Part shown: in pieces, positions 28,868-46,721 of the stretch | Layout of the letters: each line of letters opens with the position of its first letter | Position numbering within the stretch: the first letter of the stretch is position 1 | Assembly: GCF_007352635.1 (NCBI RefSeq) | Contig: NZ_VKLU01000005.1 | Coordinates: 635,940 to 699,939 of the forward strand | Length of the DNA: 64,000 nt | Direction: 5' to 3' | Source: Corallococcus sp. Z5C101001 | Lineage (GTDB): Bacteria; Myxococcota; Myxococcia; Myxococcales; Myxococcaceae | The notes under the pieces: generated by a model | Databases searched by the model: none | Told to the model about the DNA's origin: nothing | The model's input: the letters and a program-made list of their open reading frames with translations, nothing else | Position numbers and translations under genes: made by a program

Positions 28868-28879
28868 GGGGCGGTCCTC

Positions 28880-29407: not shown

Positions 29408-29488
29408 GACCGGGGGTTTAACAAGACCGACCGGCCCCCACCCGTAAAAACGGCCTGGCTGTCCGCTCCCTCACCCTGGGACGGGAGT

Positions 29489-29878: not shown

Positions 29879-30123
29879 CCCCGGTCCTTTACGATTGGGC
29901 CTCCGCGGAGCTTACCAGTCCGACTTTCGCCCCCTATGCCGATCTTCCAGGGACGAGAACATCACTCACGGACAGGCAAGTCGCGTGCGCGGACTCTTTA
30001 CAGGACCTCCTCAGGAAGACAGTGCAGGACTACGGTGGCGCGCTTCATCACAGGTCAGACGTTGCGCAGTCCCCGTGTCGCAAGCAGACCTCGACCCTCG
30101 GTGCGCAGGTCAGCCTCTCCTGC

Positions 30124-30387
30124 TCAAGTGGTTCGATGCCGTCGCCATGGGCCACCTGCTGAATCACGTTCGGCATCCCAGTCCGATGGGAGATCGCGGA
30201 CCTCATTCAGCGTCGGATCATTCTCGAAGAGGTGATTGATCCCAACGACCCGGGGGTGCTCATCCTCAGCGTGGCTACCTCCACAGAGGAACTGCCAGTC
30301 ACCATCGCCCCGAGACACCAGCAGCACATGGTGAGTCTTTTGAAACACATGCGAACAGACGTAGGCCGGAGTCTCGGACTCGCTCAT
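30124..30387 (-). CDS. Small DUF2185-like protein, a family found in polymorphic-toxin immunity loci.
   Basis: The pattern YVCSHVF...HHVLLVSRGDGDWQFLCGGSHAEDEHPRVVGINHLFENDPTLNEV resembles the DUF2185 core (hydrophobic-R-acidic-(S/D)GW-F-xG-E-acidic...DP). I chose the start at MSESE, directly after the upstream gene stop. Confidence 0.4.
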   Translation of the reverse strand: MSESETPAYVCSHVFQKTHHVLLVSRGDGDWQFLCGGSHAEDEHPRVVGINHLFENDPTLNEVRDLPSDWDAERDSAGGPWRRHRTT

Positions 30388-30860
30388 GACTTCCCCTCCC
30401 CAGGCGACCTGGCCCATTCCTGCCTCAAGATCGGCTCTTCACAGTCAACCAACCCGGCAGTCATGGCTCCGGCAACGTACCGCCGCACCTCCCCAAGAGA
30501 GACACCCCCTGGGACATTCACCGCCACCACCCTATGTGCAGCGTCAAACTCAGTCGAGCAACCCAACCGCTTCAACTCCCCCACAACCCCCACAAGACTC
30601 ATGCGATCATAAACAATCAGCCGCAGCAATGAGTTCCCAGACTCACGCCTCGTCGCCCGATACCACAAGCGCCCGTCCTCCTCCTCTACCTCGATCGAAT
30701 CCCCGAGCGTCGCACCTCTAAAAAAGAATGGGATATTATCGAGCACGAACAGCCCGCCCCCAACAGGAGTGCACCACAGACTCTCCGTTCCAACAGGAGG
30801 ATATCCGTCCTCATCCTGTTCAAGATGGAAAAACACCTTTCGACGTCCACTCATGACCAT
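30384..30860 (-). CDS. DUF4265-like protein, a putative immunity-type protein.
   Basis: FHLEQDEDGYPPVGTESLWCTPVGGGLFVLDNIPFFFRGATLGDSIEV...RESGNSLLRL matches my recollection of the DUF4265 signature (EDGYPP...E.lW...ldNiPFf..g.s.gD.v). The region is low-GC. Confidence 0.4.
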   Translation of the reverse strand: MVMSGRRKVFFHLEQDEDGYPPVGTESLWCTPVGGGLFVLDNIPFFFRGATLGDSIEVEEEDGRLWYRATRRESGNSLLRLIVYDRMSLVGVVGELKRLGCSTEFDAAHRVVAVNVPGGVSLGEVRRYVAGAMTAGLVDCEEPILRQEWARSPGEGKS

Positions 30861-30990
30861 TGATAATTGTCATCCCCTACCTGATTACAATCCCCTCACA
30901 AGCCTTGCCGTGGAAACTCCACTGCGATTCTTCGCGAGCTGGAGAGGCGCAAGCCACCCACGGGCCTCAAACACATCACCAAGCGAAGAA

Positions 30991-31566
30991 TCATGACTCG
31001 AATCGATGAAGCACAAATGCCACTTCGTTCCCGGCTTCTCTGACGATATGGGTCAGTATTCGCGAGGTTCCCGGGGGAATCCGAAGCTCCAGTCCCGGCG
31101 CAATTTCTGCACGCAGAGCACTGTCCACGATGACATATGACTCATCACGGATCGTCATCACCAGCCGCTCCACGACGAAATGAGCATTTGCCTCAAAGGA
31201 AAGTGCAGCATCGACCAAACACTCTTCAGCAGGCGAACAGGTCCACCTGACGATTGCCGGACCGTCAATCCGCTCAACAACAGTTGTCCGCAGCGGCTCA
31301 TCACCCAAGACCAAAACCTCACCCCAGTCTCGTTTGAGCACGCCCGCGTAACCGTCGATGGCGCATGCATCGCGGTAATCATCACAAGCCGTCCCAGTCC
31401 AACGTGACCTCATCGAACCGGGCAGCATCACAAGCGGTCCCCCCATCGATTCGACCCAGCTACGCGGCTGCGACTTCATGTCCTGTCCTACCCAGCTTCC
31501 CAGCGAATGGTTGGCGACAAAGAGCGGCCGGGAAATCCAACGCAACTCCACGGACTGCTCTTGCAA
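30991..31566 (-). CDS. Imm21-like protein, resembling polymorphic-toxin immunity protein family 21.
   Basis: WVESMGGPLVMLPGS..RWTGTACDDYRDACAID.YAGVL..DWGEVLVLGDEPLRTTVVE....IVRW....LHRFES fits the Imm21 pattern as I recall it (GGPL, DY..AC, LVLgDEP, RW). The region is low-GC. Confidence 0.4.
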   Translation of the reverse strand: MQEQSVELRWISRPLFVANHSLGSWVGQDMKSQPRSWVESMGGPLVMLPGSMRSRWTGTACDDYRDACAIDGYAGVLKRDWGEVLVLGDEPLRTTVVERIDGPAIVRWTCSPAEECLVDAALSFEANAHFVVERLVMTIRDESYVIVDSALRAEIAPGLELRIPPGTSRILTHIVREAGNEVAFVLHRFES

Positions 31567-31621
31567 CTCAAATCCGGGACAGAGATCCGAGCATCGGAAA
31601 GACTCTCAAGCCCACACAACC

Positions 31622-32524
31622 TCACGCGCGCGGGTGCGCCGCGTCGTAGACCTCTTGCAACTGCTCGAAGGTCACGTGGGTGTACTTCTGCGTGGTGGAC
31701 AGGCTCGCGTGGCCCAGCAACTCCTGGATGCTGCGGATGTCCGCGCCGCCGCCCAGCAGGTGCGTGGCGAACGAGTGGCGCATCGCGTGCGGGCTCACCT
31801 TGCGCGCCAACGCCAGCCGCAGCACATACGCATCCAGGTGCCTCGCGATGCTCCGGGGCGTCAACCGGCCGCCTCGGAAGTTGAGGAACAGCGCGTCCGG
31901 GTCCTGCCCCGCATGCACCGTGGCCAACAGCTCGCCGCGCCTCGCGAGGTACGCCTCCAGTGACTGGATGGACTTCGCGTTGAGCGGCACCAGCCGCTCC
32001 TTGCTGCCCTTGCCCATCACCCGGACGATGCGACTGCTCCGGTCCACGCCCAACGTCGACAGACCGCACAGCTCGCTGATGCGCAGGCCGCCGCCGTACA
32101 GCATCTCCAGGATGGCCTTGTCACGCAGCCCCAACACCGTGTCCAGGTCCGGCATGTCGAGGATGGCGAACACCTCCTCCACCGGCAGCACCTTGGGCAG
32201 TGACTTCGGCAGCTTCGGACTCTTCACCAGCTTGGCGGGACTGGCCGGCAGCAGCTTCTGCCGCACGAGGTACTTGTAGAACGACTTGATACTCGCCAGC
32301 CGCCGCGCGCGGCTCGTGGGCGCATGGTCCACGCTCAGCGTGCCCAGGTAGCCACGGATGGCCGCGTGCGTGCCCGCGAGCAGCGACAACTTCATCCGAT
32401 CCACCAGGTAGCGCTCATAATCCACCAGGTCGATGAGGTAGTTGCGCACCGTGTGAGGGGACGCGCCCTTCTCGCCTTCCAGGTGGATCTTGAACTGCTC
32501 CAGCAGCGGGGACAGAGGGGACAT
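31622..32524 (-). CDS. xerC: Tyrosine site-specific recombinase XerC (housekeeping chromosome-dimer resolvase).
   Basis: An N-terminal SAM-like domain is followed by the catalytic R...HxxR...Y region (ARKVSPHAMRHSFATHLLGGGADIRSIQELLGHASLSTTQKYTHV). It is linked to hslVU, as codV is to clpQY in Bacillus. Confidence 0.85.
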   Translation of the reverse strand: MSPLSPLLEQFKIHLEGEKGASPHTVRNYLIDLVDYERYLVDRMKLSLLAGTHAAIRGYLGTLSVDHAPTSRARRLASIKSFYKYLVRQKLLPASPAKLVKSPKLPKSLPKVLPVEEVFAILDMPDLDTVLGLRDKAILEMLYGGGLRISELCGLSTLGVDRSSRIVRVMGKGSKERLVPLNAKSIQSLEAYLARRGELLATVHAGQDPDALFLNFRGGRLTPRSIARHLDAYVLRLALARKVSPHAMRHSFATHLLGGGADIRSIQELLGHASLSTTQKYTHVTFEQLQEVYDAAHPRA

Positions 32525-32587
32525 GGTCGGGGAAGCCTAGGGGCCTCCCCGAGCCTCGCAAGATTCGCGTCGCTCCGCGAGCAGGTC

Positions 32588-34900
32588 CTACTTCGCGGGC
32601 GCCGGAGCAGGCACGGCCGCCGGAGCCGCCCCCGAGGGCGCGGGCGCACCCGGCAGCGCGGATGGCACCAGCTTCGGCAACAGCACCCGGCAGGCGTCCT
32701 CGGACAGCCAGTGGTACGTGCACAGCCACTCCGTCACGGGCACCCGCACCTGCCAGCCCAGGATGAAGAGGATGGCCAACGTGAGGCCGAGGCGTGCCCC
32801 CATCGACATGCCCTCGCTCTCATCGTCGTCCTGCGTATGGCGCAGCGCACCTCGCACCAGGTCCGCGCGATCCACTCGCGCCCCCTTGGGCAGCTTCGGA
32901 CGACGGGTGATGAGCGTCGCCACGCCGCGCGTGAGCATCAGCCGATCATTCAGCGCCCAGCCCGACCCCTCCAGGAGCAACGCCAGGTTGCGCCGCCGCA
33001 GCTTCAGCCACCCGAGCAGCCCCGCGGGCGCCATCACCACGATGGCCAGGATGGTCGCCGCGGTGATGACGTCCACCAGCGTCAGCGACTTCACCTGCGT
33101 GAGGATGAACGCCAGCGACGACCCCAGCGCCGCGAACGCGATGCCGCCCGCCGCGAGCACCCCCGCCAGACCTCCTCCCGCGGGAGCCGCCGCGGGTGCC
33201 GCCGCCGCGGGCGCCGCCACGGGTGGGGGCGCGGTCACCGTCTGCTTGTAGCCAGCCTCCAGCGATGAATCGAACTCCTTCTCCCCAGACGCGGCCAGCC
33301 CCTCCACCTTGCTGGTGATGAACGCGCCGATGCGCATGAACGGCATCGTCATCGACTCCCAGAGCGACACGGGCTGGCGGATGATCTGCGTGACGATGGC
33401 GTCGCTCTCCTTCCCGTCCACGTCGTAGAACACGCCGCGCTTGCCCACGACGAGCTCCGTGCTGCGGCCGGCGGTGACCGGGACCGCCACCTCGTAGCCG
33501 TCCGCGCCGTCCCTCGGCATCACCTTCACGTAGAGGATGCAGGTGGTGCCCTGCCCCGTCAGCGCCGAGTGCGCCGCGCGATCCGTCACCAGCACCGACA
33601 GCGTGTACTTACGGCCGCCGAGGATGAGCGTGCCCCGCTCCATCAGCGCCCGCCGCTTCGGCAGGTACAGGCTGGGCATGCTGATGAAGTTGTTGGCGAA
33701 CAGCAGCAACCAGCGCTGGTACAGCACCAACCGCTCCAGCTCCGCGATGACGTCCAGCGTGGGCTTGAGCGACAGGTCCTCCCCGCTCGCCGCCTCCAGC
33801 GCGTCCAGATCCTCGTCCGACACCGCGCCCAGCGTGTCCGCCACCGTGTGCAGCGGGCTCGCGTCCCGCTTCGCCTGCCAGCCGAGGATGGCCTCCGACT
33901 TCGACGACAGCTCCCGCCATGCGGTGTCCGTCAGCTTCACGCCATCTCCCAGGAGCGGCGTCGCCACTTCCTGGTGGAAGGCCTCCAGCTTCTCGTAGCC
34001 AGCGCCCCGGAACAGCCGCGCCCACACCAACACGCCGGACGCATCCGGCGGCGCGATGGGCAGCTCGCCCGCCGCCTTCCCCAGGGCCCCCAGGTCGCCC
34101 AGCGCACCCTCCACCCGGTCCGCGCGCAGGCGCAGGTTGGCGGCGGCCTCTGGCTGCGCGGCCACCAGCCTGCACTGCATGAAGTAGCCATCCAGCAGCG
34201 GCGCCACGTCGTGGACCCGCTTCGCCTGCTCCAGGCTCGCCGTGCCCCAGGTGAACACCGCGTCCTTGCCGGACAGATGCGTCAGCAGCGCGGCGCGCTC
34301 CTCGCGGAAGCGCTTCACCAACCCGACGTCCACTCCCGCGAGGCCCGCGCGGTTCGTCACCTGCGGGAACGCCGCGATGATGGACTGCGCCAGGGGCCGC
34401 AGCCGCTCCGGCAGCGACACCGGCGCGACCAGGCCGTCGCCGTTCTTGCCCGCGTCACGCAGCGCCTTGTCGCTGGTGCGCAGCTGCTCCAACGACAGCC
34501 GCGTGGCGTCAGGCGCCTGCAACGTGCGCAGCACCAGCTCCGCCGCGCCCCGCAGGTTGTCCGCGGCGTCGGAGAGCGCCGCGAGCTCCAACACGTCGCT
34601 GCCCGCGTCCGCCCCCTTGCGGTCCTTCAGCCGCGCCGCCGTCCAGTCCACGGCGCCTCGCAGCTCCTCCACCCGGATGCGGCGGTTGCCATCCGCGTCC
34701 ATCAGCGCGAGGAAGCGCGGATCACACGCGATGCCCTCCATGGGGCACGCGAGCGCCATCCACTGTGTCGCGGGGATGCGCACCGCTTCGGTGAGGGTGT
34801 TGAAGTCAGGGATGTCGACCTGGAGCGAGCCGCCATAGCGGCGATAGACGAGGGGTGCCATTCGGCACGCGAAGACAGCACACCCCGCCCACCGGTGCAC
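32588..34900 (-). CDS. Large hypothetical protein (about 770 aa) with an EF-hand-like Ca-binding loop near the N-terminus and 3-4 C-terminal TM helices.
   Basis: DADGNRRIRVEELRGAV fits the EF-hand 12-residue loop (DxDxNGxIxxxE). The C-terminal TM segments are GLAGVLAAGGIAFAALGSSLAFIL, VITAATILAIVVMAPAGLLGWL and LGLTLAILFILGW. The start is uncertain. Confidence 0.5.
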   Translation of the reverse strand: MHRWAGCAVFACRMAPLVYRRYGGSLQVDIPDFNTLTEAVRIPATQWMALACPMEGIACDPRFLALMDADGNRRIRVEELRGAVDWTAARLKDRKGADAGSDVLELAALSDAADNLRGAAELVLRTLQAPDATRLSLEQLRTSDKALRDAGKNGDGLVAPVSLPERLRPLAQSIIAAFPQVTNRAGLAGVDVGLVKRFREERAALLTHLSGKDAVFTWGTASLEQAKRVHDVAPLLDGYFMQCRLVAAQPEAAANLRLRADRVEGALGDLGALGKAAGELPIAPPDASGVLVWARLFRGAGYEKLEAFHQEVATPLLGDGVKLTDTAWRELSSKSEAILGWQAKRDASPLHTVADTLGAVSDEDLDALEAASGEDLSLKPTLDVIAELERLVLYQRWLLLFANNFISMPSLYLPKRRALMERGTLILGGRKYTLSVLVTDRAAHSALTGQGTTCILYVKVMPRDGADGYEVAVPVTAGRSTELVVGKRGVFYDVDGKESDAIVTQIIRQPVSLWESMTMPFMRIGAFITSKVEGLAASGEKEFDSSLEAGYKQTVTAPPPVAAPAAAAPAAAPAGGGLAGVLAAGGIAFAALGSSLAFILTQVKSLTLVDVITAATILAIVVMAPAGLLGWLKLRRRNLALLLEGSGWALNDRLMLTRGVATLITRRPKLPKGARVDRADLVRGALRHTQDDDESEGMSMGARLGLTLAILFILGWQVRVPVTEWLCTYHWLSEDACRVLLPKLVPSALPGAPAPSGAAPAAVPAPAPAK

Positions 34901-34963
34901 GCATCAACCACCGGCCCAGCGCGAAGGACGGAAGACCCGGCGGGCCCTCCGTCCCCGGGGCCC

Positions 34964-36583
34964 CTACTGCGCCGTCGCGATGGCGCTGTACACGCCGGGG
35001 CTCTGCCCCTGGCCGATGATGTAGACAGCCCTCGCGTCGTCCTTGCCGGCGAAGTACGCGGGAACCTGCACGCCCTGGTCGAGCGTCTTCCGCGCCCCCG
35101 ACTTCACGTCATAGATGGCCACGTCGTACGTGTCCGAGTCCATGCGCGCATACGTCGCGAGCACGCGCGAACCGTCGTCGGAGACCTTGTAGCTGAAGAT
35201 GCCCTGCAGCCACGTCTTCGCCTCCGCCTGCTTCTCCCCCAGGTCCAGCGCCTTGAAGTCGCACGCGCGGCCGTTGCGGATGCAGTTGGTGCGGAACACC
35301 ACCGCGCCGTTGTTCGGCGTGAAGCCGTAGCCGAACACGCCCGGCTGCACCTTCTCCGCCTTCTCCTGGCCGAGCGCGTACAGCATCAGGTCCACGGAGA
35401 ACACCGGCTTGAGGAAGCGCGACAGGAACGCGACGTAGCGGCTGTCCGAACCCCACACGAAGTTGGGCACCCGGTCCCCCACGCGCTTCGGCGCGCCATC
35501 CGGCAGCGACGCGACGCCCAGCGAGCCCGCGCGCGACGGCTGATCATACCGCTCCAGGAAGCCCACCGCCTTCGAGTCCGGCGCGAAGGCCATCTCCTCC
35601 ACCGCCTCGCCCACCTTGCGCCCCGCACCGCCGGACGATGGGCCCACGTACAGGTCGCCCAGTTGCTCCGGCTTGCCGTTCTCCGTGCGCGCCAGCCACT
35701 GCCCATCCGGAGAGAAGCCGAACACCTTCGTGCCCACCGCGAGCTTCTGCCCCTTCAGCGCGGGCACCTCCGCGAGGTACAGATCATACATCCCCCGCAC
35801 GGCCTCGCTGCGCACCTGGTACGCCACGCGCTTGCCGTCCGACGACACCTGATAGTCACCCACCTGATCCGCCAGCTTGCGCGGGGGCTCGCTCGCGCCC
35901 ACCGTCACCGCCGCCAGACCGCCCGCGGCAGACAGTCTCCGCTTGAAGAGCAGCGTCTTGCCGTCCGGGGTGAACTGCGCGGTGCTCACCTCTCCCGCCA
36001 CTGTCTGGAAGGGGCCGTTCGGCAGGGGGCCCAGCTTGAGCGCGCCCGCGTCGACGAACGCCACGTTCACGCCATCCGGAGACGGCAGCAGGTACGTCAC
36101 CGCGGAGCCCAACGTCACCGGCTCCGCCGCCGCGTCCGCCATGGCCAGCACGTGCAGCTCACCGGACTGCGAGGCCGGGTTGTACCCCGTCACGTAGAGC
36201 AGGTGCTTCGAGTCCTGGGAGAACAACAGGCTGCCCGGCACGTTCGTCACGCCATCGCCCAGCTCCCTCGGCTTCCCGCCCGCCACCGGCACCACGTACA
36301 GCGTGCCCACCAGCATCTGCGGCGGGATGCCGTCCAGCCGGGGCTTCTGCCCGTTGAGCAGGTACGTGGCGAACTGCCCGTCCGGTGAGAGCCGCAGGTC
36401 CGCCGCGCGACCCGCCGCGAGCAACTGCCCCTGCCCCCCCACCACCGCGGTGCCCTTCGCCGCGCTGCGGACCGTGTCGCCCTTCGCGGCGCTGCGCTGG
36501 GACGGCGCGCTTCCATCCTCGCCCTTCTTGCACCCCGTCACCGCCAGCAGGGCCGCCAGGCCCACCATGCCGATCCGCTTCAT
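34964..36583 (-). CDS. Lipoprotein with TolB-like/WD40-like beta-propeller repeats.
   Basis: A lipobox ([18 protein letters not shown]) is followed by repeated SPDG/FSPDG/FTPDGK beta-propeller blades ([57 protein letters not shown]). Its ATG overlaps the trmFO stop (ATGA). Confidence 0.6.
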
Positions 36584-37944
36584 GCGCTCGTCTGTCCTTC
36601 CGTCTGGGCCGAAACGCCCGCGTGTGGCAGCCAGGCCACCAGGTCCTGCTTCGCCCGCGCCGAATAGGCCGCGCGCTTGTCCGCCTTCTTCATCCGCCCC
36701 GTCAGCGGCGGGAACAGCCCGTAGATGACGTTGGTGGGCTGGTGCGGATGGTCCGGCGGGTGCGCCTCTCCCGTCAGGTGCCGGTACAGCGAGCCCAGCG
36801 CCGTCGTCGCCGGAGGCGGCACGAACGCGCCTCCCGTCAGTCGCGCGTGGATCGCCAGCGCCACCAGGTAGCCGCATGCAGCGCTCTCCACGTAGCCCTC
36901 CACCCCCGTCACCTGCCCCGCGAAGAACACCCGCCGCTCCGTCTTCAACGACAGGTCCTCCGCCAGCAGGCGGGGCGAGTCGATGAACGTGTTGCGGTGG
37001 ATCTGCCCCATCCGCAGGAACTCCGCATTCTGGAGCCCTGGGATGCACGTGCTGAAGATGCGCTTCTGTTCACCCCACGTCAGACGCGTCTGGAAACCCA
37101 CCATGTTCCACGCCGTCCCCGCCCGGTCCTCCATGCGCAGCTGCACCACCGCGTAGGGATCCATCCCCGTGCGCGGGTCCTTCAGGCCCACGGGCTTCAT
37201 CGGCCCGAAGGCCAGCGTCTCGTCGCCGCGCTCCGCCATCACTTCGATGGGCAGACATCCTTCGAAGTATTTCGGTTCCTCGAAGCTGTGCGGCACGACC
37301 TTCTGGCCCGCCTTCACCTCCTGGACGAAGCGGTGGTACTCCTCCTTCGTCATGGGCAGGTTGAGGTAGTCATCCCCGCCGCCCTTGCCGTAGCGGCTCT
37401 GGCGGAACGCCACCCCCATGTCGATGGAGTCTCCGGACAGGATGGGCGCGATGGAGTCGTAGAAGTAGAGCTTCGTGCCGACGTGACGCTCCAGGTCCTG
37501 GGTGAGCGCCTCCGACGTCAGCGGCCCCGTCGCCACCACCACCACGCCGTCCTCCGGCAGCCGCTCCACCTCCCCCGCCACCATCTCCACCCCCACGCCG
37601 GACTGGAGCCGGGTGGTGATCTCCCGCGAGAAGCCCTCGCGCTCCACCGCCAGCGCGTCACCCGCGGGCACGCGGTGGAGATCCGCGCTGCTGAGCACCA
37701 ACGAGCCCAGCGCACGCAGCTCCGCGTGCAGCAGGCCAATGGCGCTCTCCGGGTTGTCCGACCGCAACGAGTTGCTGCACACCAGCTCCGCGAGCGTGTC
37801 CGACTTATGCGCGGGAGAACGCTTGTGCGGCTTCATCTCCCGCAGCACCACCGGCACGCCGCGCCGCGCGAGCTGGTACGCGCACTCGGTGCCCGCCAGG
37901 CCCCCGCCAATCACCGTCACCCGCTGCTGCTTCACGTCCGACAT
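36580..37944 (-). CDS. trmFO: Methylenetetrahydrofolate--tRNA-(uracil54-C5)-methyltransferase TrmFO (Gid).
   Basis: The FAD-binding N-terminus [21 protein letters not shown] and the conserved segments [11 protein letters not shown] and [20 protein letters not shown] are present. The length (454 aa) is typical. Confidence 0.9.
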
Positions 37945-38178
37945 GCATGCCTCCGGGCCCCGCGGTCCCCGGGTGCCCCAAGAAGGTCCTGTTAGCAGGA
38001 AGGCCGCGCCCTTTCACGCCCGCCCGCCTGCCCTGCGTCCCACCATGCGTGCGGACTGGGAGGTGAGGTTTCCCCACCTGTGTTCGAACCCTAGGTTTCT
38101 CGCGGTCTTCGCTCGGGACGGCACCGCGTCCGGGCAAGCACCCTTCAACCGCGAACCTGGGATGGGAGTCACGCAGCC

Positions 38179-38571
38179 ATGAGCCGAACCGACGACTTGT
38201 TGAAGATCCGGGGCCTGCTTCAGGAACGCCGCCGTTCGACCGAGGCCGCCCAGGCAGGGGCTCGCCGGGAGCTGGCGGCCCTGAAGGACCAGGAGCGCGA
38301 TCCCGAGTACGAGGAGCAGGCGCAAGCGGAGCTGGCGGACTACACGCTCTCCACGCTCATCGAGGCGCAGCGCCGGGAGATCATGCTCATCGACGCGGCG
38401 CTCAGCCGCATGGACAACGACGTGTTCGGCGAGTGCGTGGACTGCGGCAATGAAATCTCGCTGGACCGCCTGGAGGCCATGCCCTTCGCGATCCGCTGCG
38501 AGCAGGACGCCGCCGAGCATGAGCAGGAGACGCGAGAGGCCGCGCGGCACGTCGGCAGCCTGTCCCTCTAG
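38179..38571 (+). CDS. DksA/TraR-family C4 zinc-finger transcription factor.
   Basis: A coiled-coil N-terminus is followed by the C-terminal CVDCGNEISLDRLEAMPFAIRCEQDA four-Cys finger characteristic of the DksA/TraR family. Confidence 0.7.
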   Translation: MSRTDDLLKIRGLLQERRRSTEAAQAGARRELAALKDQERDPEYEEQAQAELADYTLSTLIEAQRREIMLIDAALSRMDNDVFGECVDCGNEISLDRLEAMPFAIRCEQDAAEHEQETREAARHVGSLSL

Positions 38572-38587
38572 CGAAGCCGTCCAGCGC

Positions 38588-38620
38588 TCCCCCGTGCCTC
38601 CATCCCGCGCGGGGGAGCGG
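38588..38620. terminator. Putative bidirectional hairpin between the convergent dksA-like and exbD genes: 9-bp stem GCTCCCCCG/CGGGGGAGC with a 15-nt loop.
   Basis: The inverted repeat is read from the sequence. There is no clear U-tract. Confidence 0.25.
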
Positions 38621-38655
38621 TGTGTCTGGCGCCCGGAAGGGCGCACGCAAGGGGC

Positions 38656-39231
38656 CTACTCCGCGTCGCGCTGGAGCACGATGAAGCGGTAGTTCCGCAG
38701 CTCGTTCTCGCCCGCCGTGTAGAGCACCGTCAGCAGCAGATCATACGGGACCATCTTGTCCGCGATGACCGACAGCTCATGGCTGAACGGGGCGGCCGGG
38801 TTGCGCTCCGCAATGAACTTGAGCTTCTGCACTTCCTTCTTCAGCTGCGCGTCCAGGCCCAGCACCAGGCGCCCCTGGAGCTGGGCCTCCGGGATGCGGC
38901 CATCCTTCAGCCGGACCACCTCGCGCTCCCCCACCAGGATGTTCTTGGGGGTGATGGTGATGGCCACCGTGTCCTTCGGCGTGGCGCGCGTGGAGGACAC
39001 CGGCGGCCGGACGTCCTCGGACGCGGTGATGGCCGCGGAGGACGACGCGAAGGACTTCAGCAGGAACACCAGGATGATGGTCATCATGTCCATCATCGCG
39101 GTGATGTTGAGCTCCTTCACCTCGCTGGCGGCCTCGCGCTCCTTGCGCTTCTTGCGCGTGAGGGCCCGGCGGTAGCGCATGCGCGCGAGCTGCTCGGCTT
39201 CTTCGGCGGTCAGGGGCGCGGGTTCGGACAT
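38656..39231 (-). CDS. ExbD/TolR-family biopolymer transport protein (second of two).
   Basis: The single TM segment LNITAMMDMMTIILVFLL is typical of ExbD/TolR N-termini. Confidence 0.75.
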   Translation of the reverse strand: MSEPAPLTAEEAEQLARMRYRRALTRKKRKEREAASEVKELNITAMMDMMTIILVFLLKSFASSSAAITASEDVRPPVSSTRATPKDTVAITITPKNILVGEREVVRLKDGRIPEAQLQGRLVLGLDAQLKKEVQKLKFIAERNPAAPFSHELSVIADKMVPYDLLLTVLYTAGENELRNYRFIVLQRDAE

Positions 39232-39233
39232 GG

Positions 39234-39758
39234 CTACAGGGCGCTCAGCGTGACGTCGGGGAAGAGCAGCTTGCGCTCGCTGGCGGAGCCCGCCGTCTCA
39301 CGCAGGGCGTCCATCGTCTGGATGAGCGAGTCGTAGGGGATGTCCGGATCCGCCGCGACGATGACCTTCGTCTCCTGCGGGAAGGCGGCCTTGAGCTTCA
39401 CCATCCGCGCGTTGAGCGCGGCGAAGTCCTGCGTGCCGTCCGCCTTCAGCGGCACCGTGGGCGCGCCTCCCTCCGCGGGCGCGGCCTCCGGGCTGTTGCC
39501 CCGGACATAGAGCCCCTTGTGGGAGATGAGCACCGTCAGCATCAGCTTGGGCGCGTCCGCGTCCCCCTGCCCCAGGCCCGCGGCGCCATAGGTGGGCGCG
39601 GACACGTTGAGCGCGCCGAAGGCGGTGAGCCCGGTGATGGACAGCAGCATGAAGATGATGAGGTTCATGAGGATGTCGAGGTACGGGACGATGTTCAGCT
39701 CGCCCCCCTCTTCCTCTTCCATCGGCTTCAGCTTGCGGCGCGAGTGGTGGAACGCCAT
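39234..39758 (-). CDS. ExbD/TolR-family biopolymer transport protein (first of two).
   Basis: The TM segment LNIVPYLDILMNLIIFMLL matches the ExbD/TolR signature. The gene starts 2 nt after the exbD-2 stop region. Confidence 0.75.
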   Translation of the reverse strand: MAFHHSRRKLKPMEEEEGGELNIVPYLDILMNLIIFMLLSITGLTAFGALNVSAPTYGAAGLGQGDADAPKLMLTVLISHKGLYVRGNSPEAAPAEGGAPTVPLKADGTQDFAALNARMVKLKAAFPQETKVIVAADPDIPYDSLIQTMDALRETAGSASERKLLFPDVTLSAL

Positions 39759-39785
39759 GGCGAGCCTCCGCAGTCCGGCCCGGGA

Positions 39786-40541
39786 CTACGACGCCGCGCG
39801 GACGTCGCTGTCCGAGGGGACGACTTCCAGCGAGCCCCGGCGCGACAGCAGGTTCTCCAGCTTCAGGGCCTGGAGCTCCACCTGCTCCACCATGTTCTTC
39901 GCGTAGTTGCTGAAGAACAGGTGCGCCACGATGCAGAGCACCGCGATGGAGAGGCCGAAGCCCGTGTTGTACATGGCCTCCGAGATGCCGTTGGAGAGCA
40001 GCGCCTGCTTCTGCTCCGCCGGCACGTTGCCCAGCGCGCGGAAGGTGCCGATGAGGCCCACGATGGTGCCCACCAGGCCCACCAGCGTCGCGATGTTCGC
40101 GAGCGACCACAGCCACTGCACGCGGCGCGAGACGTGCGGCGTGTGCTCGGCCAGCGCCTCCTCCACCGCCCGGGCCACCTCCAGCTCCCCGCGGTTCGCG
40201 TTGATGAGCCCCGCGCGGATGACGCGCGCCAGCGGCGAGCGCGGCGCCATGCCACAGAACTTCACCGCGCGGTCCAGGTTGCCGCTGCGCACCATCTTGT
40301 GGACCTGTTCGATGAACGCGCTCGCGTTGAGGCGGTAGCGGTAGAGCAGCGTCACCGCGCGCTCCCCCACGACGGCCAGCGAGGCGGCCAGCCAGAACAG
40401 GTTCACGAACATGAACGGGCCGCCGGCCTTGAACGCGCCGACGATGAAGTCCCCCAGGCCTCCAGAAGAGGCATGGCCCGCCGCGGCGGGTGCGGCCTCG
40501 GCCAGCACCACGCGCAGCAACTCGTTCACCGAGGGAATCAT
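39786..40541 (-). CDS. MotA/TolQ/ExbB-family proton-channel protein.
   Basis: Three TM helices are present, with the conserved C-terminal motif region (ATLVGLVGTIVGLIGTF...GISEAMYNTGFGLSIAVLCIV). Confidence 0.8.
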   Translation of the reverse strand: MIPSVNELLRVVLAEAAPAAAGHASSGGLGDFIVGAFKAGGPFMFVNLFWLAASLAVVGERAVTLLYRYRLNASAFIEQVHKMVRSGNLDRAVKFCGMAPRSPLARVIRAGLINANRGELEVARAVEEALAEHTPHVSRRVQWLWSLANIATLVGLVGTIVGLIGTFRALGNVPAEQKQALLSNGISEAMYNTGFGLSIAVLCIVAHLFFSNYAKNMVEQVELQALKLENLLSRRGSLEVVPSDSDVRAAS

Positions 40542-40700
40542 CGCGGACCGCTTCCTTTCGCCGCCCCCGCGCGCACCCCTGCCGGAAACAGGCAGGAGGC
40601 GATCACGGGCCGGGAGTAATCCGGACTTCTAGGACTTCGCCCGCGAGGGTGTCAAGCCAGGGGGAAACAGCCAGCCCCCTGGAATGACTGGGGTTTCCGC

Positions 40701-43289
40701 TCAGGCCACGGCAGGGGGCGGAGAAGCGGGCGCGGCCTCGGCGGCCCCCCCGGGAACGCCCTGCTCCACCACCTCGCGGCGGTAGTCGCATTCCTTGTTC
40801 GGGCACGCGATGTAGGCGCCGTCCCGCTTGGAGAACTTCTGCAAGAGGTAGGGCGACGCGCACTGCGGGCACTGCTCCGCGAGCGGCCGGTCCCACGCGG
40901 CGAACTTGCACTCGGGGTACCGGTTGCAGCCGAAGAAGATCTTCCCGCGTCCGCTGCGGCGCTCGGTGAGGTAGCCCACCTTGCACTCCGGGCAGTTCAC
41001 GCCGATGGAGATGGGCTTGGACGTCTTGCAGTCCGGGTAGCCCGAGCACGCCATGAAGCGCCCGAAGCGGCCGCGCTTGATGACCATGGGCTTGGTGCAC
41101 TTCTCGCACTTCTCGTCCGTGGTCTCCTCCTCCACGATGACGATCTTGCCCTCGGCGTCCCGCTTGAAGTCCTTGGTGTTCTTGCAGTCGGGGTAGTTCG
41201 AGCAGGCGAGGAAGTGACCCATCTTCCCGAACTTGATGACGAACGGGTTGCCGCACTTCTCGCAGGCGATGTCGGTCTTGATCTCCTCGCGCTTGACGTC
41301 GCGCATCTCCGCTTCGGCCTTCTCGAGCGTCTCCTTGAAGGGCCCGTAGAAGTCGTGCAGCACCGTCTTCCAGGACGCGCCGCCGTCCGAAATCTGGTCC
41401 AGCTTCTCCTCCATGCTGGCCGTGAACGTCACGTCCATCTCATGGGGGAAGTGCTTGACCAGCATCTCGTTGGTCATCTGGCCCAGGTCGGTGGGGCGGA
41501 AGCGGCTCTCCAGCTTCTCCACGTACTTCTTGTCCTGGATGTTGGAGAGGATGGCCGCGTACGTGGACGGACGTCCGATGCCGCGCTCCTCCAGCTCCTT
41601 CACCAGCGTGGCCTCGCTGAAGCGCGGGGGCGGCTGGGTGAAGTGCTGCTCGTTGAGGAGCCTGTCCAGCGAGAGGACCTCGCCCTCGTTGAGCGGCGGC
41701 AGCTCACCCACGGCGTCCTCGGCGCCCTCTTCTCCAGCGGCCTTGGCCTTCTCCGCCGCGGCCTCTTCCTCCGGGGTGAGGCCCGCGCCGTAGACCCCCA
41801 GGTAGCCGGGGAACTTCAGCGTGCTGCCGGACGCGCGGAAGGTGGCGCGGCCCGCGGTGATGTCGGCGCTCGTCTGATCATAGACGGCGGCCTTCATCTG
41901 GCAGGCGACGAAGCGGTTCCAGATGAGCTCGTAGAGCCGGAACATGTCCAGCTCGTCCATGGCGTCGAAGAAGGGACGCACGCGCTCGGGCGGATACTCC
42001 AGGGACGTGGGCCGGATGGCCTCGTGCGCGTCCTGGGCGCCCTTGCGGCTCTTGTAGACCATGGGCTCCGCGGGCAGGTAGTCCGCGCCGAACTTCTTCC
42101 CGATGAAGTCGCGCACCTGCGTCACGGCGTCGTCGGACAGACGCGTGGAGTCCGTACGCATGTACGTGATGAGCGCCGTCTGGCCCTCCTCCCCCAGCGG
42201 CACGCCTTCGTACAGCTTCTGCGCCAGCGTCATCGTCTTCTTGGCGGTGAAGTGCAGCCGGTTCGCCGCCTCCTGCTGGAGCTTGGAGGTGATGAAGGGC
42301 GCGGGCGCGTTGCGGCGGCGCTCCTTGCGGTCCACCTTCGCCACGGTGAAGGGCGCGTCCTTCAGCTCCGCGACGAGCCCGTCCGTGGTGGCGCGGTCCT
42401 TCAGCTCCACCCGCTTGCCGTCCACGCGGGACAGCTTGGCCTTGAAGGGCGGCGGCCCCTGCGGGCCCTGCACCAGCGCGTCCAGCGTCCAGTACTCCTC
42501 CGGCTGGAAGGCCTTGATCTCCGCCTCGCGCTCCACGATGAGGCGCACCGCGACGGACTGCACGCGGCCCGCGGACAGGCCCCGGCGGATCTTCTTCCAG
42601 AGCAGCGGCGAGATTTGATAGCCGACGAGCCGGTCCAGGATGCGCCGGGTCTGCTGCGAGTCGTAGTTGTCCTGGTTGAGCTGGCGCGGCTGCGCGATGG
42701 CGTCCTGCACCGCGCGCTTGGTGATCTCGTTGAAGGTCACCCGCAGGGAGTCCGGGTGGCCCAGCTCCTCCTTGATGTGCCAGGCGATGGCCTCGCCCTC
42801 GCGGTCGGGGTCCGTGGCCAGGAACACCCGGTCCACGGTCTTGGCCATCTTCTTCAGCTCGTTGAGCACCTTCTCCTTGCCCTTGATGACCGTGTACTCG
42901 GGCTGGAAGTCGTGCTCCACGTCGACGCCAATCTTGCTCTTGGGCAGGTCCTTCACGTGGCCCACGGAGGCCTTCACCGTGTAGCCGGTGCCCAGGTACT
43001 TCTTGATGGTCTTGGCCTTGGCGGGCGACTCCACCACGACCAGGTAGTGCGGCCCCTTGCCACGGCGCTCGGGCACTTCCTCCTCGGCGTCGGCGTCCAC
43101 GGTGGGCAGCTCATCGCCATCCGCGCCCCGGCGACGGGCGGCCGTCTTCTTCTTGGCCGACACCTTCTTCGCCGCCGTCTTCTTCTTGGCCGCCTTCTTG
43201 GCCGCCGGCTTCTTCGAGGCCGCCTTCTTGGGCGTCTCCTCCGCCGCCGCCTCCGTCTGCGCCGCCTGTGTCTTCTTCCGCGTGGCCAT
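40701..43289 (-). CDS. topA: DNA topoisomerase I with a Lys/Ala-rich N-terminal extension and C-terminal Cys4 zinc ribbons.
   Basis: The Toprim region is YLVVVESPAKAKTIKKYLG. The active-site region sits around ...LYEGV..ITYMRTDS and multiple CxxC...CxxC ribbons (CEKCGNPF, CSNYPDC, CEKCTKPM, CSGYPDC, CPECKVG, CNRYPEC, CPQCASP) follow. Confidence 0.9.
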   Translation of the reverse strand: MATRKKTQAAQTEAAAEETPKKAASKKPAAKKAAKKKTAAKKVSAKKKTAARRRGADGDELPTVDADAEEEVPERRGKGPHYLVVVESPAKAKTIKKYLGTGYTVKASVGHVKDLPKSKIGVDVEHDFQPEYTVIKGKEKVLNELKKMAKTVDRVFLATDPDREGEAIAWHIKEELGHPDSLRVTFNEITKRAVQDAIAQPRQLNQDNYDSQQTRRILDRLVGYQISPLLWKKIRRGLSAGRVQSVAVRLIVEREAEIKAFQPEEYWTLDALVQGPQGPPPFKAKLSRVDGKRVELKDRATTDGLVAELKDAPFTVAKVDRKERRRNAPAPFITSKLQQEAANRLHFTAKKTMTLAQKLYEGVPLGEEGQTALITYMRTDSTRLSDDAVTQVRDFIGKKFGADYLPAEPMVYKSRKGAQDAHEAIRPTSLEYPPERVRPFFDAMDELDMFRLYELIWNRFVACQMKAAVYDQTSADITAGRATFRASGSTLKFPGYLGVYGAGLTPEEEAAAEKAKAAGEEGAEDAVGELPPLNEGEVLSLDRLLNEQHFTQPPPRFSEATLVKELEERGIGRPSTYAAILSNIQDKKYVEKLESRFRPTDLGQMTNEMLVKHFPHEMDVTFTASMEEKLDQISDGGASWKTVLHDFYGPFKETLEKAEAEMRDVKREEIKTDIACEKCGNPFVIKFGKMGHFLACSNYPDCKNTKDFKRDAEGKIVIVEEETTDEKCEKCTKPMVIKRGRFGRFMACSGYPDCKTSKPISIGVNCPECKVGYLTERRSGRGKIFFGCNRYPECKFAAWDRPLAEQCPQCASPYLLQKFSKRDGAYIACPNKECDYRREVVEQGVPGGAAEAAPASPPPAVA

Positions 43290-43312
43290 GGCTCTCCTAC
43301 CTCGGACTGCCT

Positions 43313-44443
43313 CTAAACCTTCTCGTACCGTTTACCCGGGTGCTGGACCACCAGCCCCGACAATTCCAACTCCACCAGTGCGCTCGTGAGCGCCGCGGGG
43401 GACAGCGGACTGCCGGCGAGCACCTCGTCGAATGAACGAGGAACCCTGTCCAACAGCCCATACGCCCCGCGCGCTTCCGCCGACAGGGCCTGCCACCACC
43501 CACCATCCCGTCCCGCGGGCACCGCCCGGACCGGATGAACGCCCACCGCCGCGCAAACCGCTTCCGCCGACGTGCACGCCTGGGCCCGCCCGTCCGCCAG
43601 CAGGGCGTTACAGCCCGCCGCCGCCGGCTGCCAGAGCTCCCCCGGCAGGGCGAAGACCGGGCGCCCCTGCGTCCGGGCCGCCTCCGCGGTGTAGAGGCTC
43701 CCGGAGTCGTGCGCGGCCCGCATCACCAGCACCGCATCCGACGCGCCAGCGATGAGCCGGTTGCGCCGGGGGAACGTCGTCGTGCTCGCCCGCACGCCGG
43801 GGGGCAGCTCGCTGAAGAACACCCCTCCCCGCTCCAGGAAGTGGGGGAGCAGGCGGGCTTGAGCCGGGTCCAGGGCGTCCAGCGCCGACCCCAGGAAGGC
43901 CCACGTCTCCCCCCCCACATCCAGCGCGCCCCAGTGGCACGCCCGGTCCACGCCCTCGGCCGCGCCCGACACCACGCCCACGCCAGCCTCCGCCACCTTC
44001 CGGGCGAACGTGCGAGCGAACGGCAGGAAGCCCTGGTCCGGATGGCGGCTGCCCACCATGCCCAGACGCCGCCGGGGCGGCCCTGGCTGGCCCCGGTGGA
44101 ACAGCAGCGGCGGCGCGTCCTCCAGGCCCACGAGCCGGGCCGGATGGGCAGGCGTCCCCGCGAAGGCCACCTGGATGTCCGCGCGGGCGCAGGCCGCTTC
44201 CACCCGCGAGGCCACCTCGTCCAGGGATGCGACGGTGGCGAGCCGCTGGCGGACGGGGGCGGGCACCGGCACGTCGGACACCCAGTCCCGCACGGGCGCG
44301 GACGCGAGCCGGGACAGCGCCCCACCGGCGAACGCACGCACCCCGTCCAGCGTCCGGGGCCCCAGGCCAGGAATGGCCCAGAGCGCCAGGCAGGCACGCT
44401 GTTCGACTGTGGGTGTGTACGTGTCCGTGTGCGCCATGCCCAT
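43313..44443 (-). CDS. dprA: DNA processing protein DprA (Smf).
   Basis: The Rossmann-like DprA core GMVGSRHPDQGFLPFARTFARKVAEAGVGVVSGAAEGVDRACHWGAL...PRRNRLIAGASDAVLVMRAAHDSGSLYTAEAARTQGRPVFALPG is present. I chose the ATG at about 44443 (MGMAHTD, with AGGCGGGG upstream) over the GTG at 44494. The gene lies 23 nt upstream of topA. Confidence 0.8.
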   Translation of the reverse strand: MGMAHTDTYTPTVEQRACLALWAIPGLGPRTLDGVRAFAGGALSRLASAPVRDWVSDVPVPAPVRQRLATVASLDEVASRVEAACARADIQVAFAGTPAHPARLVGLEDAPPLLFHRGQPGPPRRRLGMVGSRHPDQGFLPFARTFARKVAEAGVGVVSGAAEGVDRACHWGALDVGGETWAFLGSALDALDPAQARLLPHFLERGGVFFSELPPGVRASTTTFPRRNRLIAGASDAVLVMRAAHDSGSLYTAEAARTQGRPVFALPGELWQPAAAGCNALLADGRAQACTSAEAVCAAVGVHPVRAVPAGRDGGWWQALSAEARGAYGLLDRVPRSFDEVLAGSPLSPAALTSALVELELSGLVVQHPGKRYEKV

Positions 44444-44582
44444 CCCCGCCTGTTTCCCACCTATATAGAGGTGGTCCCGGGAGGGGCGTGACACATAACA
44501 CCGGAACTTCGGGGGTCAAGCGACCCGCCCTTCCCGGGCGGGTCGAATGCATCATTCCTGCCGGTCGCGGCCGTCCTTCCGG

Positions 44583-45815
44583 CTAGCGGCTGGCGGTGGG
44601 GGTCCCATCCTTGCGCATGACGGCGCGGTCTCCCGCGGAGACCTCCACCAGGGAGCGGGTCAGCAGGCAGTTGGAGGTGCGCTCACGCACCTCGGTGACC
44701 ATGCACTGGGCCACGGCCTCCCACGGGTAGGCCTTCTGCTCCTTGCCCGCGTCGCCCATCTTGTAGTCGGTGCGGCCGAGCACGTCGCGGCTGGGGTCGC
44801 CCCGGCGCTCGATGGTGAAGGTGTTGCCCACCTGCACGCCGTCCGCGGTGCCACGGTCCACGACGACGAAGTGGTGCTCGCCCAGCAGCGTCTGGCCCGG
44901 CGTCATCGGCGTCAGCACGTAGCCGGGGATCTCCTTGCTGTTGGGCTTGGGGGCGATCCGCTCCGACAGCCGCTCGCTGGACGGGCCCACCAGGTCGCCA
45001 CGGGCGATGGGGTCCCAGGTCTCCATGATGCGCGCGGTCACCACGTCGTTGTTGACGGCGACGACCTGCACCGTGCCCAGCAGCTCCGTGAGGAACCCCG
45101 TGCGGGCGTTCGTCACCGGGTGCTTCACCTCTTCCACGGTGTGGAAGATGACGTAGCGGTCGCCGACCTTGGCGGCGCCGCGCTTCTTGAAGCGCAGGTA
45201 GACCTTGTCCGGGGCGGACAGCATCAGCGCCTCGGAGGCCGAGCCGTCGATGCGGCCCGCCTCGTCCAGCTCCCGCGCCGTCACGAAGCCCTTGGTCGTC
45301 ACCGGGCGCGTGCTGGATGGGTCGTAGCCGATCTTCCCCACCACCGACACGAGGCTGCCGCCGCTCACGTCCTGGGGCGCCGTCATGTCGTCCGCGGGCA
45401 GCTCACCGGCCTCCACGCGCGAGGGCACTTCCTCGCCGCCGGGGAAGAACTTCACGTTGTTGCCCGGGTAGATCCAGTGCGGGTTGGCGATCTGCGGGTT
45501 GTAGGACCAGACCTTGGGCCAGTACCAGGGGCTGCCCAGGTAGCGCTGGGACAGGTCCCACAGCGTGTCGCCGGACTCCACGGTGTGCACCTGACCGGGC
45601 GCGCTCTCACGGCCCTGACGGGCGCCGGGCGGGAGCGTGACGGAGGTGGGCCGCTGCTCCACGTCGTCGGAGATGTCCTGGCCCTCCGTCTCACTGGCCG
45701 GCTGCGGTTCCTCCTCTTGCGCGTCCTGGGCATGGGCCGTCCACGCCGGCGCGACGGCGAGGGGCACGAGCAGGGAGGCAAGGATCCGGGTGCGCATCGG
45801 ACGACGTCCTTTCAC
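44583..45815 (-). CDS. Secreted LysM-domain peptidoglycan-binding protein.
   Basis: A signal peptide (MRTRILASLLVPLAVAPAWTAHA) is followed by the LysM domain HTVESGDTLWDLSQRYLGSPWYWPKVWSYNPQIANPHWIYPGNNVKF. Confidence 0.65.
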   Translation of the reverse strand: MKGRRPMRTRILASLLVPLAVAPAWTAHAQDAQEEEPQPASETEGQDISDDVEQRPTSVTLPPGARQGRESAPGQVHTVESGDTLWDLSQRYLGSPWYWPKVWSYNPQIANPHWIYPGNNVKFFPGGEEVPSRVEAGELPADDMTAPQDVSGGSLVSVVGKIGYDPSSTRPVTTKGFVTARELDEAGRIDGSASEALMLSAPDKVYLRFKKRGAAKVGDRYVIFHTVEEVKHPVTNARTGFLTELLGTVQVVAVNNDVVTARIMETWDPIARGDLVGPSSERLSERIAPKPNSKEIPGYVLTPMTPGQTLLGEHHFVVVDRGTADGVQVGNTFTIERRGDPSRDVLGRTDYKMGDAGKEQKAYPWEAVAQCMVTEVRERTSNCLLTRSLVEVSAGDRAVMRKDGTPTASR

Positions 45816-45824
45816 GAAAGGGGC

Positions 45825-46721
45825 TTACGGCGAGAGCGCGGCGAGCCGCTGCTCCGCCTGCGTGGCGGCGGCCGTCCCCGGGAACTGGGTAACGACGCGA
45901 GTATAGAGGGCCCGGGCATCCACGGCTTGATTCAGCCGCACCCGGCACTCCGCGAGCCGGAGCATGCCGTCCTGGACGGCATCCCCAGCGGGATAGGTCT
46001 TGATGAGCCGTTCGAACGTCTTCGCCGCGCCGGCCGGATCCTTGAGGCCCATCTGGCCCAGCCCGCTGAAGTACAGGGCATTGTCGGCGCGAGGGTGGCG
46101 GGGGTTCTCGTCCGCGAAGCGCGTGAGCTTCTCCACGCCCCCCTCCACGTTGCCGGTGCGCAGCATCGCCACGGCGTGCTCGTACTCGGCGTCGAGGATG
46201 GCCGGATCCTTCTCCGGCACCTCCACCCGGCCCGGGGACGCGAAGCCCGTCCCCGACGAGCCCTCCACCGGGCTGATGAACATCTCCATCTGATCCGTGT
46301 CCGGCTCCACCACGGGCACCACGGTGTTGATGCGCGGCGCCGGTTCCTTCTTCGGCTTGAGCCGCACCACCGCGAGCTGCGCCGGGGGCAGCCCCAGCGC
46401 CTCGCCGGTGCCGCCGACCTCGGAGGAGGAGGCCTCGGTCCGGGGGCTCGCCGCGCCCGCGGGGGACGCGGACGGCGTGGCGGCGGGCGAAGCGCTCCGG
46501 GCAGCGCGGGCGACGGCGTCGCGGTTCTCCAGCCGCTCCAGGCGCTCCACCAGCGTCGCCTGGGTGGCGCGCAGCGTGCGCACCTCCGCCTCCAGCCGGC
46601 CCACTTCCGCCTGGGAGGCGGCGGTGGTGGCGCATGCGGTCGGCGCGCTCAGCGCCACGGCGGCAAACAGGCGGAAGAGAAAGGGACGCACCGACACGAG
46701 CCTGGACGGAGGGGATTCCAC
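45825..46721 (-). CDS. YbgF/CpoB-like periplasmic protein: N-terminal coiled coil plus C-terminal TPR repeats.
   Basis: A signal peptide is followed by a coiled coil (EVGRLEAEVRTLRATQATLVERLERLENRD). The C-terminal TPR-like region (LYFSGLGQMGLKDPAGAAKTFERLIKTYPAGDAVQDGMLRLAECR) matches the Tol-Pal-associated YbgF architecture. Confidence 0.55.
   Translation of the reverse strand: MESPPSRLVSVRPFLFRLFAAVALSAPTACATTAASQAEVGRLEAEVRTLRATQATLVERLERLENRDAVARAARSASPAATPSASPAGAASPRTEASSSEVGGTGEALGLPPAQLAVVRLKPKKEPAPRINTVVPVVEPDTDQMEMFISPVEGSSGTGFASPGRVEVPEKDPAILDAEYEHAVAMLRTGNVEGGVEKLTRFADENPRHPRADNALYFSGLGQMGLKDPAGAAKTFERLIKTYPAGDAVQDGMLRLAECRVRLNQAVDARALYTRVVTQFPGTAAATQAEQRLAALSP

Follow-up and report, generated by a model that had tools for sequence, protein, structure and literature searches.

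A TolQ-TolR-TolR gene triad of Corallococcus assigned, from gene order and sequence, to the second and non-gliding paralogue of the Myxococcus AglRQS motor

The triad and its flanking spacers

The stretch of Corallococcus sp. Z5C101001 analysed here (64,000 nucleotides of contig NZ_VKLU01000005.1, positions 635,940 to 699,939, hereafter the window) is myxobacterial, high-GC DNA (GC about 70%). It carries on its minus strand a compact triad of genes, encoding one channel protein of the MotA/TolQ/ExbB type followed by two different proteins of the ExbD/TolR type, which we call R1 and R2. An earlier reading of the letters alone (the sequence-only reading) had described one MotA/TolQ/ExbB gene and two ExbD/TolR genes with gaps of 27 and 2 nucleotides (nt), and this description stands, the three open reading frames (ORFs) lying where it placed them and matching their Pfam models above the cutoffs (lengths in amino acids, aa):

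40541..39786, minus strand: TolQ/AglR-type channel subunit, 251 aa; PF01618 MotA_ExbB, 82 bits (cutoff 22.9)
39758..39234, minus strand: R1, AglQ-type ExbD/TolR subunit, 174 aa; PF02472 ExbD, 52.5 bits (cutoff 25.4)
39231..38656, minus strand: R2, AglS-type ExbD/TolR subunit, 191 aa; PF02472 ExbD, 48.6 bits (cutoff 25.4)
40542..40700, minus strand: 159-nt spacer between the topA stop and the triad; candidate promoter of its own, weak
38572..38655: 84-nt spacer between the triad and the convergent dksA-like gene; two GC-rich hairpins

By ORF coordinates, the longer gap separates the channel gene from R1 and the shorter one R1 from R2. GC at third codon positions (GC3) is 0.95-0.96 in all three ORFs, which is a coding signal. 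The channel protein shares 94% identity with Corallococcus proteins, and its exact sequence is present in assembly GCA_009909145.1. There is no second MotA or ExbD gene in the window.

The triad may possess its own promoter in the 159-nt spacer, where a TTGACA (40655..40650) and a TAGAAG (40631..40626), separated by 18 nt, can be read by eye; this candidate is weak, and a consensus promoter scan reported nothing in that spacer. At the other end, the 84-nt spacer folds at -46.7 kcal/mol (z = -1.19 versus shuffled sequences), has no T-run and has no match in Rfam. Its hairpins are compatible with the end of an operon and are statistically not distinctive.

Orthology to the second Agl set of Myxococcus xanthus

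Two complete Agl sets have been described in M. xanthus. The first, M1, is aglRQS (MXAN_6862-60; 245/162/194 aa), which is the motor of both the Agl-Glt gliding machine and the Agl-Nfs spore-coat machine, and the second, M2 (MXAN_3003-3005), is the only other complete Agl set in Luciano et al. 2011 (PLoS Genet). The comparisons presented below identify the triad as the Corallococcus orthologue of M2, that is, of a second and non-gliding paralogue of the AglRQS motor. The M2 cluster has already been described and genetically tested. The sequence-only reading had warned that myxobacteria carry several paralogous sets, and this caution was apt.

Three 20.7-kb M. xanthus-type loci (L001-L003), whose triad was reached via the Myxococcus member of a protein cluster, have at least 16 genes in the same order as the window, around a triad of 245/173/193 aa. 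The common order runs HtrA, lipase, GGDEF, Cu-oxidase_4, TPR, LysM, dprA, topA, and then TolQ-type gene, ExbD, ExbD, convergent dksA, trmFO, PD40, a protein of about 753 aa and a xerC-like gene. At the protein level, the window and M. xanthus share 69% (channel), 67% (R1) and 80% (R2) identity, comparable to the values of the neighbours (topA 88%, AglU 67%), and aglZ (MXAN_2991), tsaP (MXAN_3001) and aglU (MXAN_3008) flank the triad in the expected order.

We argue the orthology from primers and protein lengths, because the number of locus tags between aglZ and the triad fits only approximately and was rejected as a proof (dprA and topA fall under one tag, and there is one extra tag elsewhere). 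The lengths listed for MXAN_3003/4/5 are 260/173/193 aa (Luciano Table S3; the three are listed as homologues of AglR, AglQ and AglS, in this order), and that of aglU is 547 aa (Luciano Table S1). In L001, the channel ORF has 245 aa, or 260 aa if read from an upstream ATG, the next two genes have 173 and 193 aa, and the PD40 gene five positions past the channel gene has 547 aa. The published primer 3003-O1 (Wartel et al. 2013, PLoS Biol) matches L001/L002 at 9956, which is the ATG of the 260-aa ORF, and its partner 3003-O2 matches at 10721-10735, over the five codons that precede the stop. Neither the aglR nor the aglQ primers have a match within the three loci. Orthology to MXAN_6862/6861/6860 does not hold, as synteny and primers both point to MXAN_3003-5 and the small subunits have 173/193 aa versus 162/194 aa.

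We also observed that dprA and topA are called as one 1234-aa product in one M. xanthus-type assembly (L001:6136-9840). Such a fused call may explain why there is a single tag, MXAN_3002, between tsaP and MXAN_3003.

The likeness to M2 thus extends over more than 20 kb of identical gene order, with protein lengths that agree within a few residues and an aspartate, D28, in the Q-type subunit of both. The differences are that the triad belongs to another genus and that residue 188 of the channel is Glu in Corallococcus and Lys in Myxococcus.

AglR itself was sought in several ways. The top 120 homologues of the channel protein are all of the M2 type, and in a scan of one genome per species, which returned at least 80 related loci, the named Myxococcus and Corallococcus genomes had only M2-type loci among the matches listed. 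Looking up the clusters of 20 representatives brought no named Myxococcus AglR; one of the proteins considered as a representative of the AglR family (P0272) turned out to be an orphan and was rejected. A metagenome scan with the 18-mer of the published aglR primer gave 14 chance matches, none with a TolQ-like gene, and a motif search for the primer-derived AglR termini found no match among the proteins collected for comparison. A separate search, with the AglZ N-terminus, returned no named AglZ.

What is published on M2 bears directly on the proposal of the sequence-only reading that the triad is a candidate motility or spore-coat motor. Deletion of MXAN_3004 does not affect gliding (PMC3169522), and the mutant forms viable spores (PMC3858216). 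In two-hybrid assays, MXAN_3003 gave no signal with either GltG or NfsG, whereas AglR did (PMC3858216). M2 is unable to compensate for the loss of aglRQS, and its function is stated as unknown; full-text literature searches found no later papers naming MXAN_3003-3005. The published work on the M. xanthus orthologue thus contradicts the proposed role, which finds no support here.

We consider it very improbable that the triad could be the gliding and spore-coat motor itself in Corallococcus, either as AglRQS or as its functional equivalent. To be sure, the triad is of the Agl family and has the same pairing of Q-type and S-type subunits, D28 of its Q-type subunit being shared with AglQ, and it is located between the gliding genes aglZ and aglU. 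Anaeromyxobacter, moreover, has an Agl-type set at the same position, and Luciano lists only one set for that genus, which presumably drives Glt. The idea would also regain weight if this genome lacked M1. However, the triad is orthologous to MXAN_3003-5 and not to MXAN_6862-60, and in M. xanthus the strain without MXAN_3004 is motile and sporulates, the channel protein binds neither GltG nor NfsG, and M2 is no substitute for the lost motor.

Motor residues, fold and family membership

The channel protein has three hydrophobic segments (residues 40-58, 147-165 and 193-211), while R1 and R2 have one hydrophobic N-terminal transmembrane segment each; R2 has in addition a basic cytoplasmic N-terminal tail, about 40 aa long. 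In the channel, T159 and T193 align to T145 and T178 of E. coli TolQ and are invariant in 89 sequences extracted, as for the counts that follow, from the related loci. A conserved transmembrane Asp in each TolR paralogue, which the sequence-only reading had named as something to check, is indeed present in both: D28 of R1 aligns with the transmembrane Asp of TolR and ExbD (TolR D23, ExbD D25) and is invariant in 85 sequences, and D48 of R2 aligns with that of ExbD (D25) and is invariant in 83. At channel position 188 (E. coli TolQ E173), Corallococcus and Anaeromyxobacter have Glu, whereas 20 syntenic loci of the Myxococcus type (L001-L003 and others) have Lys.

Within Corallococcus, the ratio of nonsynonymous to synonymous substitution rates (dN/dS) amounts to 0.18-0.22 for the channel gene, 0.25-0.45 for R2 and 0.45-0.78 for R1, with 0.12-0.17 for topA; the extreme GC3 bias inflates these values, which are usable only relative to neighbouring genes. 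Read in this way, they indicate that the triad genes are under purifying selection. R1 evolves much faster than its partners within Corallococcus (about 80% identity, against 92-96% for the channel, in L019 and L023). R1 and R2 are only 27% identical and fall into two separate clades (Q-type for R1, S-type for R2). Both types are kept in all 80 loci long enough to tell, among the matches listed, and since both clades are retained in every locus, the Q/S split is ancient.

An AlphaFold2 (AF2) model of the channel protein (predicted local distance difference test, pLDDT, 77) is helical and has its best matches among solved TolQ chains, with target-normalised TM-scores of 0.68-0.74, followed by ExbB (0.6-0.7) and then by MotA and PomA. 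The best PDB sequence match of both R1 and R2 is ExbD.

These comparisons place the triad, at the level of sequence, within the MotA/TolQ/ExbB-MotB/TolR/ExbD superfamily of proton-driven 5:2 motors and, more precisely, in an Agl-type subgroup of it, since the channel gene precedes two divergent TolR-type genes, one of the Q type and one of the S type. The triad falls outside AglRQS proper, Tol-Pal and TonB-ExbBD. Its relatives at 42-96% identity are all in TolQ-R-R triads. The NCBIfam scores of the channel protein are far below the cutoffs (54 versus 221 bits for the TolQ model TIGR02796, and 32 versus 206 bits for the ExbB model TIGR02797), as are those of the small subunits (39 versus 127 bits for TIGR02801, with the ExbD models also far below cutoff). 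The sequence-only reading was thus right to prefer an Agl-type set to a canonical TolQR or ExbBD.

With AglRQS, the triad has in common one TolQ-type gene, one Q-type and one S-type TolR gene, the transmembrane Asp in the TolR-type proteins, the fact that the set stands alone, apart from Glt partners, and, judging from homology with the AglR5QS model in the literature, a predicted 5:1:1 stoichiometry. It differs in being a paralogue and not an orthologue, in its small-subunit lengths (173-174/191-193 aa in M2-type triads, 162/194 aa for AglQ/AglS) and in that M2 is dispensable in M. xanthus for both gliding and sporulation. TolQ-TolR (solved as TolQ5R2 and TolQRA, e.g. 8odt and 9ddm) is the best structural match, with the Thr-Thr-Asp motor residues conserved, but the sequence identity is about 20%, the triad has two different TolR-type genes in place of a TolR homodimer, and it has no tolA-tolB-pal operon. 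With ExbB-ExbD it shares the superfamily and fold and the transmembrane Asp of the ExbD-type proteins, while differing in that there is no tonB nearby and that the nearest relatives are Agl-type, not Exb-type.

The sequence-only reading had argued from the arrangement of one channel gene and two TolR-type genes. Taken alone it is not diagnostic, since exbB-exbD1-exbD2 sets of the same make-up occur in the TonB systems of other bacteria. One might thus suppose that the triad is an energiser of this type, serving one of the numerous TonB-dependent outer-membrane transporters that myxobacteria possess, with tonB located elsewhere. The shared superfamily, the match of the fold to ExbB and the ExbD hits of both small proteins speak for this. 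We nevertheless think it decidedly unlikely, because the ExbB and ExbD models score far below their cutoffs, the closest relatives (42-60% identity) are Agl-type triads, and there is no tonB or transporter gene in the conserved neighbourhood of the 56 syntenic loci listed. A TonB_C gene was found neither among the annotated genes near the triad (window positions from about 22 to 64 kb) nor in the conserved block of these 56 loci.

Gene neighbourhood in the window

The genes around the triad that matter for its interpretation are the following:

38179-38571, plus strand: DksA/TraR-type gene, convergent with the triad
37944..36580, minus strand: trmFO
36583..34964, minus strand: AglU orthologue (MXAN_3008), TolB-like PD40 beta-propeller lipoprotein, third gene downstream of the triad
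32588-34861: conserved unknown membrane protein next to aglU, 757-770 aa, no Pfam match
43289..40701, minus strand: topA, upstream of the triad
44494..43313, minus strand: dprA, upstream of the triad
45815..44583, minus strand: TsaP orthologue (MXAN_3001), LysM protein; TsaP is the secretin-associated protein of type IV pili
45825-46721, minus strand: TPR protein adjoining tsaP; CpoB/YbgF model 76.9 bits, below the cutoff of 90.1
59615 to the window end (64000), plus strand: AglZ orthologue, receiver domain followed by a coiled coil of more than 1400 aa, cut by the window end

The coordinates confirm the convergent DksA/TraR gene and the upstream position of topA and dprA, as first described. 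The further statement that there is no tonB, tolA, tolB or pal gene downstream is correct for tonB, tolA and pal but not for tolB, given the TolB-like AglU gene, which has the lipobox LAVTGC and whose start overlaps the trmFO stop by 4 nt. No TonB_C, TolA or Pal/OmpA gene is present among the annotated neighbours (the same 22-64 kb). The AglZ-like gene to which the sequence-only reading had appealed is real, and aglU is close as well, but this is a conserved feature of the region and no proof of function.

The genes dprA-topA-trmFO-xerC-like-hslV-hslU form a housekeeping block (27470-44494) that is interrupted by three apparent insertions: the triad with dksA, aglU with the membrane protein gene, and a low-GC island. 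Bacillus subtilis has these genes in the same order. Since the flanks of the triad are a housekeeping block, its adjacency to topA or dprA is uninformative on function.

The proximity of a TolB-like protein raises the question of whether the triad and AglU could together form a Tol-like envelope system, or whether the triad could be a conditional back-up for AglRQS or TolQR. In 32 of the listed loci, from Corallococcus to Anaeromyxobacter, an AglU-like PD40 gene keeps a distance of two genes from the triad, aglU mutants have a gliding-plus-spore phenotype like that of agl mutants, and the fold of the channel is nearest to TolQ. On the other hand, the MXAN_3004 deletion does not have the aglU phenotypes, and the constant spacing can be explained if both are insertions in the dprA-topA-trmFO-xerC-hslVU block. 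There is also no TolA or Pal partner near the triad, the only candidate component being the PD40 lipoprotein AglU three genes away, and M. xanthus has a complete Tol-Pal system at MXAN_5753-5757. We regard such a Tol-like or back-up role as improbable. A related idea, that of a dispersed Tol-Pal-like set made up of the CpoB-like TPR protein, the LysM protein, the triad and the TolB-like AglU, was dropped because the LysM protein is TsaP and the dprA-topA-trmFO-xerC-hslVU block is a housekeeping one.

Three further observations concern other parts of the window. The AglZ coiled coil contains, at about 61.4-62.6 kb, a run of near-identical short repeats (..TLAETRGELEATSQTL..). The low-GC island lies between the xerC-like gene and hslV (about 29900-31600, GC 0.60 versus about 0.70), and its genes (Imm21, DUF4265, DUF1801) resemble those that confer immunity in polymorphic toxin systems; the M. 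xanthus loci do not have this island at that position. Finally, a gene at 15942-21113 (plus strand) encodes a secreted M36 (fungalysin-type) metalloprotease of 1723 aa with a PA domain and five PKD-like repeats.

Distribution and evolution of the locus

Among the matches listed, 56 of the 80 loci have the order dprA/topA-triad-dksA/trmFO, and the full block, including the AglU-like gene two genes from the triad, is found in 32. The syntenic loci include Corallococcus, Myxococcus, Pyxidicoccus, Citreicoccus, Hyalangium, Archangium and Anaeromyxobacter; in the last (e.g. A. oryzisoli, L064), the triad ORFs have about 219-224, 176-179 and 194 aa. More distant Agl-type triads stand beside other genes. 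In Kofleriaceae-type loci, these encode PBP1A, a large TPR protein and small proteins of unknown kind, and in L014 and L083 they are DUF3108 and GH123 genes. The triads of L014 and L083 are not syntenic and branch beside the M2 group of the Myxococcaceae, and a Myxococcota metagenome-assembled genome (L016, 3594-7624) has two tandem Agl-type triads adjoining a PD40 protein.

The exhaustive list of Luciano includes four complete Anaeromyxobacter genomes, each with a single Agl set (224/162-164/194 aa) and a single Glt set. Because Anaeromyxobacter shares the topA-trmFO insertion with an AglU-like gene and is reported with a single Agl set of matching lengths (224/162/194 aa), the M2 locus has the look of the ancestral site of a single Agl motor. 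The wider reading, in which M2 and not aglRQS stayed at the ancestral chromosomal position, is offered only as a possibility.

Discussion

Since its motor residues are invariant and purifying selection acts on its genes, the triad most likely encodes an active motor unit driven by protons. We thus favour, as a moderately probable reading, an Agl-type motor that is the orthologue of M2 and would act on a transducer partner encoded at another locus. By homology to TolQ5R2, ExbB5D2 and the AglR5QS model, the triad would encode a proton-driven inner-membrane motor unit in which five TolQ-type subunits (a pentamer suggested by that homology) surround an R1-R2 heterodimer. The transmembrane residues D28 of R1 and D48 of R2 would face T159 and T193 of the channel, and the flow of protons would drive a conformational or rotary cycle. 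This cycle would be passed to a partner of the TolA/TonB/GltG type, a protein with one N-terminal membrane helix whose gene would lie at another place in the genome.

As to this partner, M. xanthus has two orphan clusters, G4 (MXAN_1919-1923) and G5 (MXAN_1327-1331), each with one GltG homologue and without a motor of its own. Because there are four Glt-like machines and two motors, with M1 serving both Glt and Nfs, it is conceivable that the M2-type motor works with the GltG paralogue of one or both of these clusters (MXAN_1923 in G4, MXAN_1330 in G5), a suggestion that we make by elimination and hold as doubtful. It is supported by the fact that Myxococcus and Stigmatella have two motors together with Nfs-, G4- and G5-like sets (Luciano), and Anaeromyxobacter one motor and one Glt set.

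Several points weigh against this interpretation and should be acknowledged. The separation of M1 and M2 is based on primers, lengths, synteny and the literature. Because residue 188 is Lys in the Myxococcus-type orthologues, the channel chemistry is incompletely conserved. The motor activity of M2 is deduced from conservation. The search for a second MotA/ExbD set covered this window. Finally, the link to G4 and G5 was reached purely by elimination, and polar mutants of the gltD homologues of G4 and G5 are without a motility phenotype.

A triad of this kind is easily mislabelled as a gliding motor, as TolQR or as ExbBD, and the assignment to M2 averts such mis-annotation. It also draws attention to a conserved and apparently functional motor that is present throughout the Myxococcaceae and related lineages and has been for 15 years without a known output; the GltG paralogues of G4 and G5 are the place that we suggest for the search for its partner. 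The synteny between the triad and Anaeromyxobacter gives a concrete and testable scenario for the divergence of the gliding motor and its paralogue. If M2 were indeed the ancestral locus, the gliding motor of Myxococcus would be a relocated duplicate that kept the old job, and the copy left in place would have been freed for a new task, for which powering the orphan Glt-like G4 and G5 machines is a candidate.

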